Shown piece after piece: positions 2,702-45,218 of a stretch of 45,218 nucleotides of DNA (the first letter of the stretch is position 1; each line of letters opens with the position of its first letter). The DNA is from an uncultured archaeon. Its GTDB lineage: Archaea > Asgardarchaeota > Thorarchaeia > Thorarchaeales > Thorarchaeaceae. The translations under genes were made by a program, and so were the position numbers. The stretch spans positions 1-45,218 of the forward strand of contig CAZSWP010000032.1 of assembly GCA_964610875.1 (NCBI GenBank), in the 5' to 3' direction. The notes below the pieces were generated by a model, which was given only the letters and a program-made list of their open reading frames with translations, ran no database searches and was not told where the DNA came from.

Positions 2702-3017
2702 TGCGACGGCTCCTCTATTTCGGGTGTCGTTATTCGGCGGGCAGATCAGTGCATTTCTCAGAGCAGCTACCTCTGAGGCTCCACCACTCTCCCTTAGAGC
2801 TGTTCCCGCCAGGGCCTGACTCGGTTCGGGAGTCTGAGCAAGCTCACAACTGTCCTACGACCGTTGCTGCCGCCGTGACAGACTTCAGAGACCGCTCGTC
2901 AACGTCTTGCAACTGGACCCACCGAGGTCCCGGTTCACTCTCAATGTTGGTTACTGGCTCCGGTTATTGCCATACCGGTCACAGGCCGCGGCAAACGGCC
3001 CAGCCCTACCCGTCGCA
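2702..3017 (-). ncRNA. ffs: Archaeal signal recognition particle (7S) RNA
   Basis: Ends pair (TGCGACGG/CCGTCGCA); Alu domain with UGUGA motif and complementary loops (UUGCC/GGCAA); helix 6 GUAG tetraloop; helix 8 CAGGCCC-N4-GGGAACAGC; ~316 nt. Confidence 0.92.
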
Positions 3018-5019: not shown

Positions 5020-5685
5020 TTGGAACGGTCATTAGTTATCATAAAACCCGATGGAACAGTTCGTAGAACAGTGAGTGCAATCGTATTGAAGGAATTTCTT
5101 GATAAAGGATTCAAACCTGTTGCTTTCAAAGAGATGAAAGTACCCGAGTTTCTAGCCAAGATGCACTATGATGTGCATAAGGAGAAACCATTCTTTCCAT
5201 GGCTAGTGGATTTCATTTCCTCAGCACCAGTTCTCACTATGATATTAGAGGCTGAAGATGTGATACAGGGAGTACGTGATGCACTTGGTGCCACGTTTGT
5301 ACAGGAGGCTTCTCCCAACACACTACGAGGAAAATACGGTATCTGGGCAGGAATCAATATTGCCCATGCATCGGACGCTCCTGAAACTGCTGCTAAGGAA
5401 ATTAATCTCTGGACAAGTGAGAGTGAGTTGAAGGAGTCATCTGATGCAGAAGAAGAAGCTAGAACATACATAAGAAAATATGGATCGGGTGATGCAGACT
5501 ATACAATGGAGATTCGTGGTATAGTAAAAAGCGCTATTGAGAACAAGGACCAGTCGGAAGAGGTTCTTTCATCTTTGAAAAACCTTCTCGGAAAAGATGC
5601 AGAAGGTATACCCGAAAGTCAAGTTTCTACCCTTGCTGAAGTCATTTTTGATTTTGTAATCGAAGAGATTGAAAAAACAGAATAG
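5020..5685 (+). CDS. ndk: Nucleoside diphosphate kinase with C-terminal extension
   Basis: IIKPDG, HYDVHKEKPFF, TLRGKYG and catalytic NIAHASD motifs; ~85 extra C-terminal residues. Confidence 0.92.
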   Translation: MERSLVIIKPDGTVRRTVSAIVLKEFLDKGFKPVAFKEMKVPEFLAKMHYDVHKEKPFFPWLVDFISSAPVLTMILEAEDVIQGVRDALGATFVQEASPNTLRGKYGIWAGINIAHASDAPETAAKEINLWTSESELKESSDAEEEARTYIRKYGSGDADYTMEIRGIVKSAIENKDQSEEVLSSLKNLLGKDAEGIPESQVSTLAEVIFDFVIEEIEKTE

Positions 5686-18297: not shown

Positions 18298-18374
18298 TGG
18301 TGGGCCGGAGGAGATTTGAACTCCCGATCCCTTGGATCCGAACCAAGAATCATACCAAGCTAGACCACCGACCC
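18298..18374 (-). tRNA. tRNA-Pro(CGG), CCA encoded
   Basis: Acceptor GGGTCGG/CCGGCCC, anticodon arm CTTGG-TTCGGAT-CCAAG, TTCAAAT T-loop, A-CCA end. Confidence 0.95.
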
Positions 18375-18441: not shown

Positions 18442-19281
18442 TTATTTTACATCTGGATTATACTGTTTCCTTAGTGTTTCCACTGTGCCAAGAAATACCC
18501 CCTCCAAACTAAATACTTCAGAAGTAAGCAGGTCAGCACAGTCATTCTCAAATAATGGTCCTTGAAATCGAACATCAGAACGATTGATACTAACCCCTGT
18601 TATCAAGTCATTGAAGGGGGGCAAGGTCAAAAGTGTCGCATCCCCGTCATTTAATTCTAACTTTCCCTGTTTACTTCTAACACAGTCCCTGTTTAATTTT
18701 GAGCTCATTACTACTGGTACAACATGTGACGAACGTCGTCTTTCTGAACGTCCTATAACTAAAGAAGAAACATCGAGAACCCTTCTCACATTGGGGTGAT
18801 TATGTCCCACAACGATTAATTTCGACTGTAATACATCATCTGATGGCCATGCATGACCATGTAAAAAGCCAATACGTTCTTCTTTTGTTTCAAGTACCGT
18901 ACCTTGCGTTTCAGTGATTTTAATTGACCTGGGTAGGAGAGGACCGAGGTTACCATCATGATTGCCCGGGATTATGGTAATCGGTGTGTAATTTACAACG
19001 CGCTCCATAAACTCTGGAATCGTTCTCCAATTGTATGAACTATCGGTGTGAATGGTATGTTTCACATCTCCTATGATGTAGAGCCATTCTATACTATATT
19101 CACTGACCAACCTAACAATTCTTTCAAGCATCTTTTCATGTTGATATGGAAAATGCGTTCCTGTTCTCTCTGATAGGTCTATCTCATATCCTAGATGTAA
19201 ATCAGATATTACCAATATACTGATGTCATCTAGTTCCAAGACCAATGCCCTGTCTTCAAAGATGAGATTCATTTCATCCAA
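18442..19281 (-). CDS. Calcineurin-like metallophosphoesterase (COG1407-like)
   Basis: SDLHLG, GDVKH, GNHD, HGH and GHNHP motifs. Confidence 0.9.
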   Translation of the reverse strand: MDEMNLIFEDRALVLELDDISILVISDLHLGYEIDLSERTGTHFPYQHEKMLERIVRLVSEYSIEWLYIIGDVKHTIHTDSSYNWRTIPEFMERVVNYTPITIIPGNHDGNLGPLLPRSIKITETQGTVLETKEERIGFLHGHAWPSDDVLQSKLIVVGHNHPNVRRVLDVSSLVIGRSERRRSSHVVPVVMSSKLNRDCVRSKQGKLELNDGDATLLTLPPFNDLITGVSINRSDVRFQGPLFENDCADLLTSEVFSLEGVFLGTVETLRKQYNPDVK

Positions 19282-19336
19282 TACTCACAACACACATGGT
19301 TTTAACGTCGTCGTCATAACTAAAATAGAGAGAAAA

Positions 19337-19723
19337 ATGCTACTCCTGCCACATGAGATCAAGATGTTGTCGGAACAAGAACTCAGTCAAAAGACCATCA
19401 ACTACTTCAAGGACCGATATGACAAACGTTTTGTGAGAGCATTACGCGCAGTAGATGAAGACAGGGTTGTACGTTATCATTTTGTTCCTAGCGATTCAAC
19501 TACTTGGATTGTATGCGGGAGACGGCGTGAGTACATGGTTATTCCAGAAACATACTGCACCTGTCGTAGTTTCTATCAAGATGTAGTGATATCACGAGAG
19601 AGCAAGTTTTGTTATCATCTATTAGCACAGAAGATTGCTCAATTGAGAAACAGCTACAAATTGAAGGAATCAACTGACTCTGAAAGAAGAAAACACTATG
19701 TCAGTTGGAGAAGAACTGACTAA
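19337..19723 (+). CDS. SWIM zinc-finger protein (Sws1/ZSWIM7-like)
   Basis: YCTCRSF-x11-CYHLLA SWIM motif in a ~128-aa protein. Confidence 0.8.
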   Translation: MLLLPHEIKMLSEQELSQKTINYFKDRYDKRFVRALRAVDEDRVVRYHFVPSDSTTWIVCGRRREYMVIPETYCTCRSFYQDVVISRESKFCYHLLAQKIAQLRNSYKLKESTDSERRKHYVSWRRTD

Positions 19724-19811
19724 GTCTGGTACCACCTTCAAACTGAGGATACATTTAAAACACTGGTCAAGATGTTGCACGCTGTCTGAGCAAATAGGTC
19801 GAGATGAGTCC

Positions 19812-20915
19812 ATGTTACGCCTCAGGAATGCAACTAAAATCTGTGTGACGGTTATTACCCTACTGCTTGTAGTATCAAGCATACCTAATACAGTCAATGC
19901 ACAGTCGTCTGAACTTGATCCCCTTTTGATTATGTATGATGCAAGCCATAGCCCCCAGTTTGCCGCTGATAACGAAGAAGAGGGTCTAAAATTAATGCTT
20001 GACATGATTAATGAATCAACAAGGTATAAAGTTCGCATTAATTACGCATTCTTGAATACAACAATCCTCAATGATGTCGATGTTCTAATAATTGCCAGCC
20101 CTGATGCGAGTGCTGAATTCAATTCAGAAGAAATTCTGGCAATCGATGATATGCTGACCAACGGTAGCTCATTACTCTTGATGGGAGATCCAAGCATTGA
20201 TCAAAATTCAACCTACTGGAGTAATCAACAATTCAGAGATATTGGTGAAAATTGGGCTATCAATAGAATTCTGACCTCCTTGAATATCTCTGGGCCCTCC
20301 TTCAGCTTCAATGAAACACTCAGTGGTGATGAAACAGTTTACAGGGGCGAAGCAATGTTTGACTACGAACATGCTGTCAATAGCACCTCTCCATCAATTA
20401 TTCAATTTGATGCAACAACATGGGATGAAACACATCCTATCTTCCGAGACATCAACTCGATAATCGCCATGACTGCCACCCTCAAACCAATTGGCCTTAG
20501 TAGTTCAATAGCAACAGGTTATGACACCTCTTTTGCACAATACAGACGAGGACCAAATACTTTTGGTAACCTGACATATCCAAATATGACGCTTGCCGAG
20601 TTTGAAGAACACCCTCGGTCATACTCTGCAATCAACGGAACTTTCCCATCTTGGCTGTCTGCTTTCGAATATGACAATAGCAGGATTATTCTCACTGGTT
20701 CAACAATCATGTTCAGTGGAAAATATCTTGATATCGAGGACAGTGAAGAACAATGGTTTTACCAAGCTGACAACTCTCGTCTTTTCATGAATATGCTTAG
20801 CTGGTTGACTGAGGGCTTTGTAGAGAGTCCTGATGCAACAATACCTATTGCGATAATTTCATCCGTGATACTCGTACTTGGTATTGCGATTTACTTATTC
20901 AAAAAGATGAGATAG
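19812..20915 (+). CDS. Type I membrane glycoprotein with GIFT (GldG/IFT52/OST48-like) domain
   Basis: Signal peptide; YDASH, LNDVDVLII, GSSLLLMGD, SRIILTGS..FS, N..LFMNMLSWL; many NxS/T sequons; C-terminal TM followed by KKMR. Confidence 0.7.
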   Translation: MLRLRNATKICVTVITLLLVVSSIPNTVNAQSSELDPLLIMYDASHSPQFAADNEEEGLKLMLDMINESTRYKVRINYAFLNTTILNDVDVLIIASPDASAEFNSEEILAIDDMLTNGSSLLLMGDPSIDQNSTYWSNQQFRDIGENWAINRILTSLNISGPSFSFNETLSGDETVYRGEAMFDYEHAVNSTSPSIIQFDATTWDETHPIFRDINSIIAMTATLKPIGLSSSIATGYDTSFAQYRRGPNTFGNLTYPNMTLAEFEEHPRSYSAINGTFPSWLSAFEYDNSRIILTGSTIMFSGKYLDIEDSEEQWFYQADNSRLFMNMLSWLTEGFVESPDATIPIAIISSVILVLGIAIYLFKKMR

Positions 20916-20917
20916 TT

Positions 20918-21535
20918 TCACCAATGGGGGTTTTCAATCCCCATTGTTTTGAGATTACTTTCTATCTCCTTTTTCACTTTTCCAATGCCCTTCTTTTTCT
21001 TTGCTGTAGTTGCTATAATAACCGGTTCATGGTCAGGAAGAGCAATCTCTAATTTCTCTCTGAGATACATCAGTTCTCTCTCCTGCTCCTTTTTCTTTAC
21101 TTTGTCAATTTTGTTTGCAACTATAATAACATTCGCTGCAATCTCCGATAGAAAGGTATAGAATTCAACATCTATCGGAATCTCACCACGAGCATTCCAT
21201 CTTTCAAACAACACTCTAAACAAGGAAACATCAATTACTAGAATGGCAACTGCTATTCTTTCACTCATCCTTTCAAGTGTATGGACAATACGTGTTTTCA
21301 TTTCATCGACGGATGTCTTACTCTGTCCAGCCATGTAGCCAAAGCCCGGAAAATCAATCAAAACGACCGATCCAAGGTCTATCCTATGCTCCCATCTAGT
21401 GCTACCAGGTTTTTTTCCAACTTTGATTTTAATTCCAGTTAATGCTCTTATTGTACTGCTCTTTCCCACATTACTTCTTCCAGCAAAAACTACGAGAGGT
21501 TTTCTCTTAGTCCCAGAATGGTCGTGTTCTCTCAT
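20918..21535 (-). CDS. engB: EngB/YihA-family GTPase
   Basis: FAGRSNVGKSS, GKKPGST, DFPGFGY, NKID. Confidence 0.92.
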   Translation of the reverse strand: MREHDHSGTKRKPLVVFAGRSNVGKSSTIRALTGIKIKVGKKPGSTRWEHRIDLGSVVLIDFPGFGYMAGQSKTSVDEMKTRIVHTLERMSERIAVAILVIDVSLFRVLFERWNARGEIPIDVEFYTFLSEIAANVIIVANKIDKVKKKEQERELMYLREKLEIALPDHEPVIIATTAKKKKGIGKVKKEIESNLKTMGIENPHW

Positions 21536-24350
21536 ATTGTTTCTCCGCCTTAGCTATTGTACGAAGTATTGTCAGTCTATCGGTCAATTGAGGGTTGAGA
21601 ATACGTGATGCTGTTTGGGGACCAATCCCTCTCCCTGCAAGAATCAACAATGCGACTTTCCCATATTCAGAAACAAGACTTGCTGTCAGTGCTCCTGTTC
21701 TGTATTTCTTATACTCTTCTCTTGATAGTTTGTTACCCGCTGCATGGTTTTTTACAATCTTGACGAAATCTTGGTCAACTGTAGAAACTGCAGCAACCAT
21801 TGAAGAATCGCATATTGGACAAAATATCTTGTCATCCAGTGTGGATAATGTTCTTACCGAGTTCCAGTCAACGTTACCCATACAGACCAACCTGAATTTC
21901 TTTGACATAAGTCGATCTTCCATCATTTTCAATACTTCATCTTCCTCTGAGATTTCTCCCATTACTTCAAATCTAGTCTTCTCCTCAATAATTAACCGGG
22001 CAAATGATGATGGTCTTTTCGTCTTGACCACTATAATTTCCATTTTTCCATCTGCAATTTTTTGGAAAAGTTCGATGATTCTTTTCTCATCCAGCTTATC
22101 TCGAAGTACCTCATTCATAGCTTCAGTAAATACTGGAGAGTTCTCATATGATTTAATGAGTCGTTGAACAGGAATTTCGTGTATTTTTGCGTCACGTCTA
22201 ATGATACCCATCCGTCGTCCCACATGTACAAAACGGGATGCAAAATTTTGTGTTTGCTTTACTGCTATTCTCAGAATAGAAACTATCTGTCTTGTATCAT
22301 AAGTCCTCAATATCTCAGGAAGTATATCTGCATCAATACCACCAGGCGTTGTAAATAGAACTCGATAAGGGTCTCTCTCAACGGCAACCTCAATTCCTAA
22401 CTGTGTCGTAAGCAAAGCACCTAATACAACACCAAGGGTTTCATTCGCCCGTGTTCCAAGTGCAATATGTACCACAATTCCATCATCAATTTTCTCAATA
22501 ATCACTCTATCATTTGACGGAAGCGTTCCAAACGCTTCTTTCGCTGCAATAATAGTGGAAATTACATGATTCTGTGCATTTATCGAAATCCGATATTCCT
22601 TCTCAAGCTGTTTTCTAAAAACGGATTCGCTATCGTCAATGAGATTCCATACTTTGGCAACCTCCGAAGCAACCTCGTAAGGCACTGGAATCATCTCGCC
22701 AATCCATCTCGGCGCTTCAACCTCTGTTTCTACTACTGGTGCACAAAGGACCTCTTCCTTATCATCATCCACTGATACAATCTTCCATGGCCGTCCACGA
22801 ATCACAAACACACTTCCTAAATCCATACTCTCCACGAATGTTTCATCAAGAACACCTATACTTCTTCTACTGGCCATGTCCACAGCTCGTACCTGTTGAA
22901 CATCAGGTATAGTACTAAGATGCTCATAGTAAAACGACCGCGTCCTTTTGTATCTTTTAACTAAACCGTTCTCAACTCTGAGTGTTTTCCGCTCTTCTAA
23001 GAAATTCAAGATACTCCTCAGTTCAATTTCAGTAATCTTCTTGAACGGTTGTGCTTGTTGTACCAGTTTGAATAACTCATTGAAATCAATCTCATCAATA
23101 TCGAGTAGAATTCCTGCTACCTGTTGACTGAGGACATCCCATGCCTTCTCAGGAATCTTAGCATTCTCCACCTTGTTTGCTCTTGCTCTTCTCAATATCA
23201 CTCCAGACTCAAGAATATCATCCAAATTTGCAGTAGCAATGATAATTCCTTTTGATACTCTACCTACACCGTGACCAGATCGTCCCACACGTTGTAAGAT
23301 TCTTGACACCTCTCTAGGTGATGAATACTGAACCACCAAGTCTGCCTGCCCAATATCTATTCCTAACTCTAGACTGGAAGTGGCAACTATTGCCTTGGAA
23401 ATGCCATTCTTTAGACGGTCCTCAGCTTCAAGCCTCACATCCTTTGACAATGAACCGTGATGCACATCAAATTCAAAGGCTGGAGAAAGTATCCGTATTT
23501 TTGAGCCTAAAACTTCTGCAAAGGAACGTGTGTTAGTAAAAACAAGGGTTGACTTATGTGATTCAATAAGTTCCATAATTCGTTTCATGCGGGCTGTAGA
23601 GTGGGGTGGATATGAAATCCTTCGAGCAAGTTTCTTATCGTCGGATGATGGTTCTGGCATTTCTACCGTCATCTCAGTTTCTCGCGATTGGTATCCTGCC
23701 CAAAAGGTGTGTACATCACGTTCATTTCCAACAAGTAGCTCGGCAACATCTTTTGGATTCCCAACAGTCGCTGACAATCCAATACGTTGAATTGAGTTCC
23801 CTGCTAATCGTTCAAGTCTTTCAAGGCCTAACGAGAGTTGTACTCCTCGCTTTCCGTCTGCCATCTCATGAACCTCATCCACAATGACCGCAAATACGGT
23901 CTTTAGATGATAGCGAAGTCGCTTTCCCGGAAGAATGGCTTGCAGAGTTTCAGGCGTTGTAATTAACAGATTTGGGGGACGTATGGCTTGTTTTCTCCGA
24001 GCGTATTGTGTTGTATCACCATGACGGACTGCAACCGTAATTCCAAGATGACTGCACAGCTCTTCGATCCTTTTGAACACATCCCGATTGAGTGCACGGA
24101 GTGGTGTGATATAGAGAACATAAAATCCAAACAACTCTTGTTCTTCTTTCATTTTGTACAATTTATGAAGTAACGGCAATAGAGCCGCTTCAGTTTTGCC
24201 ACTCCCGGTAGGTGCTAATAATAATACGTTCTTTCTATCTTCAAGAATTGCAGGTATCGCTTTAGATTGGATATCGGTGGGATTCTGTATTCCACTCGAT
24301 TGTAAAAAATTGGAAACATCTGAATCGAGCAGACTGAATACATTCATCAC
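21507..24350 (-). CDS. lhr: Lhr-family SF2 helicase
   Basis: APTGSGKT, PLRALNRD, DEVHE, SAT, HHGSLS, SSLELGIDIG, QRVGRSGH; C-terminal CPIC and GRGIGP extension. Confidence 0.92.
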   Translation of the reverse strand: MMNVFSLLDSDVSNFLQSSGIQNPTDIQSKAIPAILEDRKNVLLLAPTGSGKTEAALLPLLHKLYKMKEEQELFGFYVLYITPLRALNRDVFKRIEELCSHLGITVAVRHGDTTQYARRKQAIRPPNLLITTPETLQAILPGKRLRYHLKTVFAVIVDEVHEMADGKRGVQLSLGLERLERLAGNSIQRIGLSATVGNPKDVAELLVGNERDVHTFWAGYQSRETEMTVEMPEPSSDDKKLARRISYPPHSTARMKRIMELIESHKSTLVFTNTRSFAEVLGSKIRILSPAFEFDVHHGSLSKDVRLEAEDRLKNGISKAIVATSSLELGIDIGQADLVVQYSSPREVSRILQRVGRSGHGVGRVSKGIIIATANLDDILESGVILRRARANKVENAKIPEKAWDVLSQQVAGILLDIDEIDFNELFKLVQQAQPFKKITEIELRSILNFLEERKTLRVENGLVKRYKRTRSFYYEHLSTIPDVQQVRAVDMASRRSIGVLDETFVESMDLGSVFVIRGRPWKIVSVDDDKEEVLCAPVVETEVEAPRWIGEMIPVPYEVASEVAKVWNLIDDSESVFRKQLEKEYRISINAQNHVISTIIAAKEAFGTLPSNDRVIIEKIDDGIVVHIALGTRANETLGVVLGALLTTQLGIEVAVERDPYRVLFTTPGGIDADILPEILRTYDTRQIVSILRIAVKQTQNFASRFVHVGRRMGIIRRDAKIHEIPVQRLIKSYENSPVFTEAMNEVLRDKLDEKRIIELFQKIADGKMEIIVVKTKRPSSFARLIIEEKTRFEVMGEISEEDEVLKMMEDRLMSKKFRLVCMGNVDWNSVRTLSTLDDKIFCPICDSSMVAAVSTVDQDFVKIVKNHAAGNKLSREEYKKYRTGALTASLVSEYGKVALLILAGRGIGPQTASRILNPQLTDRLTILRTIAKAEKQYERTRPFWD

Positions 24351-24577
24351 CTTGGACCTCTTGACGAAACATGCTTAATTTCGTTCAAAAGGATACGCAT
24401 ATCAGTTTTTAATGTCACTTCAGCTTCTGCCATCTCTTTTTCTATGAATTGAATACTCTCTACTAGATTAGAGCACTCTTTCTCAACCATCGTTATTATG
24501 CTACGGATAGCATCAAGATTTGACATATGTCCTGCGACGTTCTCAAAAGCAGTCTGAATGATTTCAATATGGGGCAT
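24347..24577 (-). CDS. Hypothetical helical protein (76 aa)
   Basis: GGGGG SD; stop overlaps the lhr start codon. Confidence 0.65.
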   Translation of the reverse strand: MPHIEIIQTAFENVAGHMSNLDAIRSIITMVEKECSNLVESIQFIEKEMAEAEVTLKTDMRILLNEIKHVSSRGPR

Positions 24578-24603
24578 TTACTGAACCCCCTGCATGTGTC
24601 CAG

Positions 24604-24726
24604 CTATTCTTCTTCAGGTTCTCCACCATAGACTGAATATGCTAGAATAAGCACTAGTGCAAACACGCCCATTATATTTAGTACAACAAAGATGATTGAG
24701 TTTGCTAATTCTGGCGTTATCTGCAT
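24604..24726 (-). CDS. 40-aa single-TM miniprotein, OST4-like
   Basis: Not in the ORF track. ATG 24726 to TAG 24604 encodes MQITPELANSIIFVVLNIMGVFALVLILAYSVYGGEPEEE; GAGTGA upstream; co-oriented with its neighbours. Confidence 0.7.
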   Translation of the reverse strand: MQITPELANSIIFVVLNIMGVFALVLILAYSVYGGEPEEE

Positions 24727-24837
24727 AGTAATCAAAATCACTCGGATTTAGTCCGCTTATAACCATTGCTGAATGTGGCATCTTGTACTAGTATACTTCA
24801 CTATACTCATAGATACAATATTAGAGAGAAAAATAAT

Positions 24838-40220: not shown

Positions 40221-40646
40221 ATGAAACCCTGGTGGCCTAGATTTATTGTCAAACCGAGAGTTCGCCTAACACGTGCCCGTTTTAGCACACCCACAAGACC
40301 ACCTGATATCATAATCTTTGGTCTACTATTCATAATGGTGCTATTCATACTGGGTGGTAACATTTATACTCTTGTTCGAACTCCACCGGCTATCGCAGGC
40401 AGTCAATCTGGCGCACCCATTTTGATTTACCCGGGAATTGATGCACAGCTAGGATTAGAAGGGATTGTAGCTTCAGTCCTTATTCTGATGGGTACAATTG
40501 GTCTTGGGCTGCTTTATTATTCCTCAAAATACGTATTCCAACCAGGATATGCTACAAGACTGTTGATTCTTGGAATGGTAATTACTGGAATCACTATCCT
40601 AATCTTTGGATACTTCTTTGGAATTAAAACTAGACTATTTGAATAA
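40221..40646 (+). CDS. OST3/OST6-family oligosaccharyltransferase subunit, DC2/OSTC-like
   Basis: 3 TM; GGNIY.LV..PP.I and Q..LEGIVAS.L..MG.IG match DC2/OSTC; no thioredoxin domain. Confidence 0.8.
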   Translation: MKPWWPRFIVKPRVRLTRARFSTPTRPPDIIIFGLLFIMVLFILGGNIYTLVRTPPAIAGSQSGAPILIYPGIDAQLGLEGIVASVLILMGTIGLGLLYYSSKYVFQPGYATRLLILGMVITGITILIFGYFFGIKTRLFE

Positions 40647-44628: not shown

Positions 44629-45218
44629 ATGTCCTCATTTAGTAGGTTCAAAAGGTCTGCTGGACGTTTCCTACGGCAGGTCTTCCATAAACCAAAAGCG
44701 AAGATATCACGTGGATCAGTCATGATAATGCTTGCTCTAGTGCTTATCTTCTTTGCAGCACTAGTTATGCGCTTGACTCCCATGATTGATTCACAACCAA
44801 TAGTCAGAGCATTTGACCCGTGGTTCCAGTTGAAGGTCACAGAATTTGTAGCAGAGAATGGATACGGTGCATTCTTCTCTTGGTACGATTACTCAACATG
44901 GGTTCCTTATGGTCGTGATATGACAACTACCAGTTATATTGGTGTTCCATTCACTGCGGCAATGCTATACTGGATTGCAAATGGCCTAGGAATTCAAGTT
45001 TCTATAATTTACATAGCACTCATCATGCCTGCCCTCTTGGGTGCAGCTACTACCATTGTTGGATTCTTTCTTGGGCGCGAGCTTTCAAATACTACTGTTG
45101 GTTTGTTGAATGCAATTTTCTTGGCTTTCATGCCTGCATTTCTACAGAGAACTGTGTCTGGATTCTTTGACAACGAATGTGTTGGTGTTTTAGCTATTAC
45201 CCTGACCCTTTTCTTCTT
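44629..45218 (+). CDS. aglB: Oligosaccharyltransferase catalytic subunit AglB/STT3 (5' part, runs off window)
   Basis: Not in the ORF track. ATG 44629 opens MSSFSRFKR...; motifs RAFDPWF, W.D...W.PYGR, R...GFFDNE; multiple TM helices. Confidence 0.93.
   Translation, partial: MSSFSRFKRSAGRFLRQVFHKPKAKISRGSVMIMLALVLIFFAALVMRLTPMIDSQPIVRAFDPWFQLKVTEFVAENGYGAFFSWYDYSTWVPYGRDMTTTSYIGVPFTAAMLYWIANGLGIQVSIIYIALIMPALLGAATTIVGFFLGRELSNTTVGLLNAIFLAFMPAFLQRTVSGFFDNECVGVLAITLTLFF

Follow-up and report, generated by a model that had tools for sequence, protein, structure and literature searches.

A conserved single-helix miniprotein of Thorarchaeia as a possible OST4-like partner of STT3

The window analyzed here is the entire stretch of 45,218 nucleotides from contig CAZSWP010000032.1 of an uncultured Thorarchaeaceae archaeon. 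It carries, on the minus strand, a small gene for a membrane miniprotein of 40 amino acids, whose ATG is located at 24726–24724 and whose stop codon is at 24606–24604. The encoded protein has a short polar N-terminus starting with MQ, a single transmembrane (TM) helix spanning approximately residues 9–33, and an acidic tail, GGEPEEE. These properties match well with an earlier description made from the DNA letters alone (below, the sequence-only reading), which had pointed to a 40-residue frame with one TM segment at 24604–24726 and had likened it to the eukaryotic oligosaccharyltransferase (OST) subunit OST4. The features relevant for the analysis, together with the RNA genes of the window, are given in Table 1.

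Table 1. Features of the window, with coordinates counted from its first nucleotide.
Feature	Position	Strand	Remarks
RNA gene, tRNA	1454–1536	−	Rfam match
RNA gene, archaeal SRP RNA	2704–3015	−	Rfam match
RNA gene, tRNA	18301–18374	−	Rfam match; the three RNA genes are the sole Rfam matches in the window
Lhr-type helicase gene (lhr)	21507–24350	−	last in the conserved miniprotein–p76–lhr row
p76, gene of a 76-residue helical protein	24347–24577	−	overlaps the start of lhr; present in most of 20 Thorarchaeal loci and in family f15
Miniprotein gene	24604–24726	−	40 codons plus stop; single open frame in orthologues
TATA/BRE-like element ATGRTTATAAG, putative promoter	24755–24766	−	motif recurs forty bases before the ATG, at a fixed distance, across nearly all 20 orthologous loci
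STT3/AglB gene, start	44629–45218	+	runs off the contig end and continues on another contig (C89); includes TM1, TM3 and the basic segment KPKAKISRG before TM1

A GTG codon located five codons upstream of the ATG could serve as an alternative start and would yield a 45-residue form, while the ATG with its MQ start is the one conserved among relatives. The orthologues have lengths of 33–41 residues with one hydrophobic stretch each, and the conserved residues of the helix are L16, M19, G20, A23, L24, Y30, and G34. The miniprotein has no basic residues to which the positive-inside rule could be applied. We have also considered an overlapping 55-residue frame at 24614–24781, which was rejected because no frame other than that of the miniprotein stays open in more than 7 of the 35 distinct orthologues.

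The miniprotein gene is genuine, conserved, syntenic, and under purifying selection. Searches with the single protein match a small open frame in each of 24 genomes from its family, and a profile built from 20 orthologues recovers the miniprotein, at E ≤ 3e-11, from 75 of the 76 genomes of that family. All 35 distinct orthologues keep the frame open, and their pairwise differences amount to 0.40, 0.22, and 0.66 at codon positions 1, 2, and 3, respectively, with a median dN/dS of about 0.23. In the protein database, 186 clusters are found, all of them small and, among the 120 listed, mostly of 36–41 residues; the few that bear an organism name are labeled "hypothetical protein" from Thorarchaeota MAGs, and none of the 120 carries a precomputed Pfam domain. 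It could be argued that the locus is non-coding, either because the open frame arose by chance or because the p76–lhr unit has a conserved leader there, as the frame is very short and a strong Shine–Dalgarno (SD) site is absent in Thorarchaeota. However, such a locus would be expected neither to keep one frame open in every orthologue nor to change fastest at the third codon position with a low dN/dS. In addition, the amino-acid pattern is kept across families that differ in DNA, start codons, and SD sites, and no RNA family of Rfam is matched at the miniprotein locus. We consider a non-coding origin to be highly improbable.

The gene order around the miniprotein is well conserved. In 20 of 20 fetched Thorarchaeal loci, a cysteine desulfurase gene is followed divergently by elf1, the miniprotein gene, and lhr, with p76 between the last two in most cases. 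The miniprotein is accordingly found in every one of these loci between elf1 and lhr, which is where the sequence-only reading would have its syntenic orthologues searched for. The element TTATAA at 24757–24762 lies some 31–36 nucleotides upstream of the ATG. Since such a TATA-like element is found at a fixed short distance from the start codon, the gene appears to be served by a promoter of its own and its transcript to have a very short leader, and we infer a promoter role for the TATA/BRE-like element on the basis of its motif and position. The p76 gene starts 26 nucleotides past the miniprotein stop codon behind a GGGGG site that resembles a ribosome-binding (SD-like) site, and the spacer contains no T-run. 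The two genes are probably co-transcribed. The p76 protein, for which Pfam and NCBIfam offer no family and which displays the motifs AFENVAGHISNLD and (D/E)(V/I)TLRTDIRILINE, is probably a small partner of Lhr.

The STT3 gene is located at a considerable distance. In five of five relatives it lies about 20 kb from the miniprotein gene, a spacing that is a matter of large-scale synteny and not of an operon, and the miniprotein gene never adjoins the gene of STT3 or that of the DC2-like protein, which the window encodes at 40221–40646.

Beyond its own family, the miniprotein gives weaker matches to frames of about 40 residues that have their own ribosome-binding sites and start with ATG, GTG, or TTG. 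Divergent copies occur in four or more further Asgard families. With a broadened profile at E ≤ 0.001, the miniprotein is found in 75/76 genomes of family f1, 2/3 of f13, 3/4 of f15, 5/6 of f19, and 14/21 of f22; in the remaining families, at most a few of the searched genomes yield it. The neighboring proteins identify f19 as Jordarchaeia/Freyarchaeota and f13 as Candidatus Atabeyarchaeum. The miniprotein of f22, which is Heimdall-labeled, aligns with the family profile with an hhalign probability of 95%. Its gene (loci L058–L063) has no ATG; a conserved GGAGA lies 7–8 nucleotides before a TTG, the second codon after a stop codon, and owing to this arrangement the TTG is likely the start. The f22 gene adjoins that of ribosomal protein eS1 (S3Ae). 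An exhaustive profile search of 1.84 billion representative proteins returned only 22 proteins, of 29–54 residues, and the 14 of these that were inspected are all of the same Asgard miniprotein type. No fused or longer forms of the miniprotein were found, which is weak evidence.

The neighborhood in these families bears on a quite different possible function of the miniprotein. In f15, a phosphoesterase gene is followed divergently by a SWIM gene, the miniprotein gene, p76, and lhr, and in f15, f19, and f13 alike the miniprotein gene stands directly behind the SWIM zinc-finger gene. At the loci L064, L055, and L053 (f15, f19, and f13, respectively), the row can be written as metallophosphoesterase, divergent SWIM, miniprotein, and then either p76–Lhr or RPA. 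In Thorarchaeota (window 18442–24726), the miniprotein–p76–lhr block appears flipped with respect to the SWIM gene. The miniprotein might therefore be unrelated to glycosylation and work with the SWIM protein, p76, and Lhr, for instance by tethering a nucleic-acid module to the membrane or by regulating it. It heads the miniprotein–p76–lhr row, the short spacer and the SD-like site before p76 tie it to the downstream genes, the same order recurs in f15, and a gene order kept over class-level distances usually indicates co-regulation. On the other hand, such a function has no known precedent, p76–lhr is not adjacent to the miniprotein gene in f19 and f13, and small genes often ride in conserved neighborhoods. 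The complex prediction discussed below, moreover, offers STT3 as a confidently predicted alternative partner. We regard this scenario as unlikely. A bolder version, to which we assign a slightly smaller chance still, is that the miniprotein with its acidic tail has a role other than, or beyond, that of an OST subunit and constitutes the membrane-anchored first product of an Asgard SWIM–miniprotein–p76–Lhr unit, linking the helicase module to the membrane.

We now turn to the likeness to OST4. In an ungapped alignment of human OST4 residues 12–25 with miniprotein residues 17–30, 5 of 14 positions are identical (N, G, V, L, and Y). The alignment given by the sequence-only reading is thus correct when checked against PDB 2LAT, from which residues 1–29 of the human protein were taken; the yeast Ost4 sequence used is identical to that in PDB 1RKL and 6EZN. 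Correct is also its remark that the His following the Tyr in OST4 is a Ser in the miniprotein. The identical positions are conserved to very different degrees within the miniprotein family, G20 being kept in 67 of 68 sequences and Y30 in 68 of 68, L26 being the majority residue (51/68), while N17 occurs in 23/68 and V21 in 8/68. The invariant Tyr30 is followed by Met, Ser, or Thr in the majority of these 68 sequences.

To calibrate these identities, 1268 natural TM segments from long open reading frames of the same genome were used as a null set. Five or more identities out of 14 to the human OST4 core are reached in some ungapped register by 24.6% of these decoys, and the resemblance noted by the sequence-only reading is therefore at background level. 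The spacing of Gly and Tyr by ten residues (G-x9-Y), which the miniprotein has in common with both yeast and human OST4, is present in 4.7% of the decoys.

The Pfam Ost4 model (PF10215) gives no match to the miniprotein at E ≤ 10. In a six-frame scan of the genome, it gives nothing at the miniprotein locus and spurious matches only, and in 301 Asgard genomes it yields zero matches above the 25-bit cut-off. Its best matches in these 301 genomes, at 22–23 bits (L069/L071 in genomes G183 and G139), fall on the last helix of a 345-residue multi-pass membrane protein, which shows that the Ost4 model easily matches unrelated helices. When 26 family members were scanned against Pfam, one touched Ost4 with E = 0.019, below the cut-off, and 17 other, unrelated single-helix TM families were matched as well. 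Two members gave weak matches to Sarcolamban (best E = 0.0021), which, in view of the many TM families matched, are part of the general noise. For the miniprotein and the 26 members together, Pfam and NCBIfam return no consistent family.

Profile comparisons lead to a similar picture. The family profile retrieves no OST4 chain from the PDB sequences at E ≤ 10. With the Thorarchaeal profile, human OST4 obtains 1.4 bits and yeast Ost4 0.3 bits, values that 27% and 49% of the decoys, respectively, equal or exceed. In the reverse direction, with an OST4 profile that is shallow because it consists of the yeast and human sequences only, a score of 0.4 bits is obtained for the miniprotein of the window and a median of 1.3 bits for the family, levels attained by 37% and 22% of the decoys, respectively. 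The best family member, from f15, reaches 8.3 bits, a score equaled by 0.3% of the decoys. An hhalign comparison of the Asgard alignment with yeast plus human OST4 recovers the very register of the sequence-only reading, with a probability of 5.7% and a score of 14.0; however, 10 of 100 column-shuffled alignments also reach 14.0. The profile of the orthologues thus finds no match in Ost4, which is one half of the refutation that the sequence-only reading had named for its own proposal. It should be kept in mind that yeast and human OST4 find each other in the PDB search with E = 0.08 only; the OST4 family carries so little information that the negative outcome is itself a weak one. As far as sequence comparison goes, the likeness of the miniprotein to OST4 is no better than chance.

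The idea of an OST4 in Asgard archaea is already in print. Eme et al. (2023, Nature 618:992, PMC10307638) report Ost4 and Ost5 homologues in most Asgard classes, although the sequence-only reading was not aware of any described archaeal OST4. In the supplementary discussion of that paper, OST5 and WBP1 are the only subunits named. The Asgard Ost4 of Eme et al. represents the same kind of claim, Thorarchaeia being among the groups studied. A 2024 study on the MK-D1 translocon covers OST1, OST3/6, and STT3, and the term "Ost4" is absent from it.

In light of this, one has to consider that the miniprotein is a true homologue (orthologue) of eukaryotic OST4, inherited from an Asgard ancestor. In favor of this are the equal size, the single TM helix, the shared G-x9-Y spacing, the same predicted orientation and site on STT3 (see below), and the published claim of Ost4 homologues in most Asgard classes, as well as the fact that some family members score within the top few percent of the decoys, with the f15 protein as the best example. 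Against it speak the lack of any match of the Pfam Ost4 model above the cut-off in the 301 Asgard genomes, the near-background profile and hhalign scores, and the occurrence of G-x9-Y in unrelated TM segments. Furthermore, the Heimdall-labeled branch lacks the Gly and bears no likeness to OST4, and among the 14 proteins inspected from the exhaustive search none is like eukaryotic OST4. Common descent with OST4 is possible, but, weighing these points, we consider it doubtful.

The question of a shared function is distinct from that of descent, and was addressed by means of complex prediction. One STT3/AglB gene, of eukaryote-like type, is the sole one found in the genome. It is split by the assembly, such that the N-terminal 196 residues lie at the end of the window and the rest at 5679–6476 of contig C89 of the same assembly (G000, minus strand). 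Because the STT3 gene is divided over two contig ends, the pair from G007, the closest relative with a whole STT3, was modeled instead, using the STT3 membrane domain (residues 1–530) and the miniprotein of that genome, both supplied as alignments. The G007 STT3 consists of 920 residues and is 74% identical to the 196-residue fragment of the window, while the two miniproteins are 65% identical. The input alignments are shallow, the STT3 rows being 62–82% identical.

The STT3–miniprotein complex was predicted with a score of 0.71 (0.70–0.72 in three runs). Among solved complexes, 58 of 80 score that high, and among mismatched pairs 2 of 110 do. At least 88% of the contacts are common to the runs, and the pLDDT of the partner is at least 71. 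The best of three controls scored 0.00; the two partner controls among them are natural but unrelated proteins, which need not be TM helices, and the difference between 0.71 and 0.00 is thus not a measure of specificity among TM helices. The predicted interface on STT3 comprises residues 28–54 (TM1), 155–167 (TM3), 450–461 (end of TM12), and 486–505 (TM13), where the TM helices are numbered by a hydropathy count. On the side of the miniprotein, the contacts with the lowest predicted error involve L16, M19, G20, A23, L24, L26, and I27, among which are its most conserved residues. The contact residues of the miniprotein are barely more conserved than its non-contact residues (entropies of 1.21 and 1.43, respectively), a comparison that, with five non-contact positions, is not informative.

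Residue 16 of the miniprotein is predicted to contact STT3 residues 43–47, and residues 26–27 to contact 35–36. This order of contacts along TM1 implies that, in the model, the miniprotein helix runs antiparallel to TM1, which would place the N-terminus outside and the tail in the cytoplasm. A review on the yeast structure describes Ost4 as "nestled between TMH1 and TMH13 of Stt3" (PMC7226087). The miniprotein is hence predicted to dock on STT3 at the OST4 site and in the OST4 orientation; a failure to dock at that site was the other half of the refutation named by the sequence-only reading. As to the orientation of the eukaryotic subunit, Ost4 reportedly has a lumenal N-terminus and a cytosolic C-terminus. 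The docking at this site, which rests on the confidence of the model, is the only positive evidence for an OST4-like role, and it has to be considered that the complex model has seen solved STT3–OST4 structures and may for that reason place any suitable helix there.

On balance, we lean narrowly toward the view that the miniprotein functions in the manner of OST4, as an accessory subunit of AglB/STT3. Part of this slight preference goes to true common descent with OST4, which taken by itself is the doubtful proposition discussed above. Several observations speak against an accessory STT3 subunit altogether. No sequence test favors kinship with OST4, and the tail is acidic where that of OST4 is basic, the Tyr–His pair of OST4 being absent as well. 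The miniprotein gene stands apart from glycosylation genes such as that of STT3, and its conserved neighbors in several Asgard classes are the SWIM protein, p76, and the Lhr helicase. The prediction, finally, is open to the recall of OST structures by the model, to controls that were not shown to be TM helices, and to the shallowness of the alignments.

If the miniprotein is such an accessory subunit, the following mechanism can be proposed. The gene, leading a short transcription unit, would be transcribed from a TATA promoter of its own, and the miniprotein would span the membrane once, the N-terminus facing outward and the acidic C-terminal tail reaching into the cytoplasm. With its conserved face of small and aliphatic residues (L16, M19, G20, A23, L24, and I27), the helix would pack into the groove of STT3 formed by TM1, TM3, TM12, and TM13, and the glutamate tail would come to lie beside the conserved basic segment that precedes TM1 of STT3. 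In eukaryotes, OST4 is needed for the stability of Stt3 and for the incorporation of Ost3/Ost6 (or DC2). By analogy, the miniprotein would stabilize STT3 and might perhaps help to recruit an Ost3/DC2-like subunit.

Should this turn out to be true, the core of OST subcomplex II (Stt3–Ost4–Ost3/DC2) would have been assembled in Asgard archaea before eukaryotes arose, which would back the view, already published, that the N-glycosylation machinery of archaea is complex. The miniprotein would also provide a concrete and easily synthesized 40-residue partner of Thorarchaeal STT3 for co-expression and structural work. Beyond the idea already published, the present analysis contributes a defined family with its conserved residues, its putative promoter, its distribution, and a predicted interface, together with the caution that sequence alone does not prove homology.

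It is instructive to compare the miniprotein with known small subunits. KdpF of the Kdp ATPase and sarcolipin and sarcolamban of SERCA are, like the miniprotein, helices of 30–40 residues that pack on a large multi-pass enzyme; the family matches of the miniprotein, however, are inconsistent, and nothing points to a partner of that kind. The closer comparison is with eukaryotic OST4 and yeast Ost4p (PF10215; PDB 1RKL, 6EZN, and 6C26; human PDB 2LAT and 6S7O). The miniprotein differs from these in having no significant sequence or profile similarity, in its acidic (EEEEE) instead of basic tail, in having no His after the Tyr, and in an N-terminus that starts with MQ and has no conserved Asp-x-Gln-Leu. 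It differs also in that its gene lies in a helicase neighborhood and in that its binding to STT3 is predicted. Common to both are a length of 36–40 residues with one TM helix and the Gly and Tyr ten residues apart inside that helix. If the complex prediction for the miniprotein is correct, a non-cytoplasmic N-terminus and contact with TM1 and TM13 of STT3 would be added to these.
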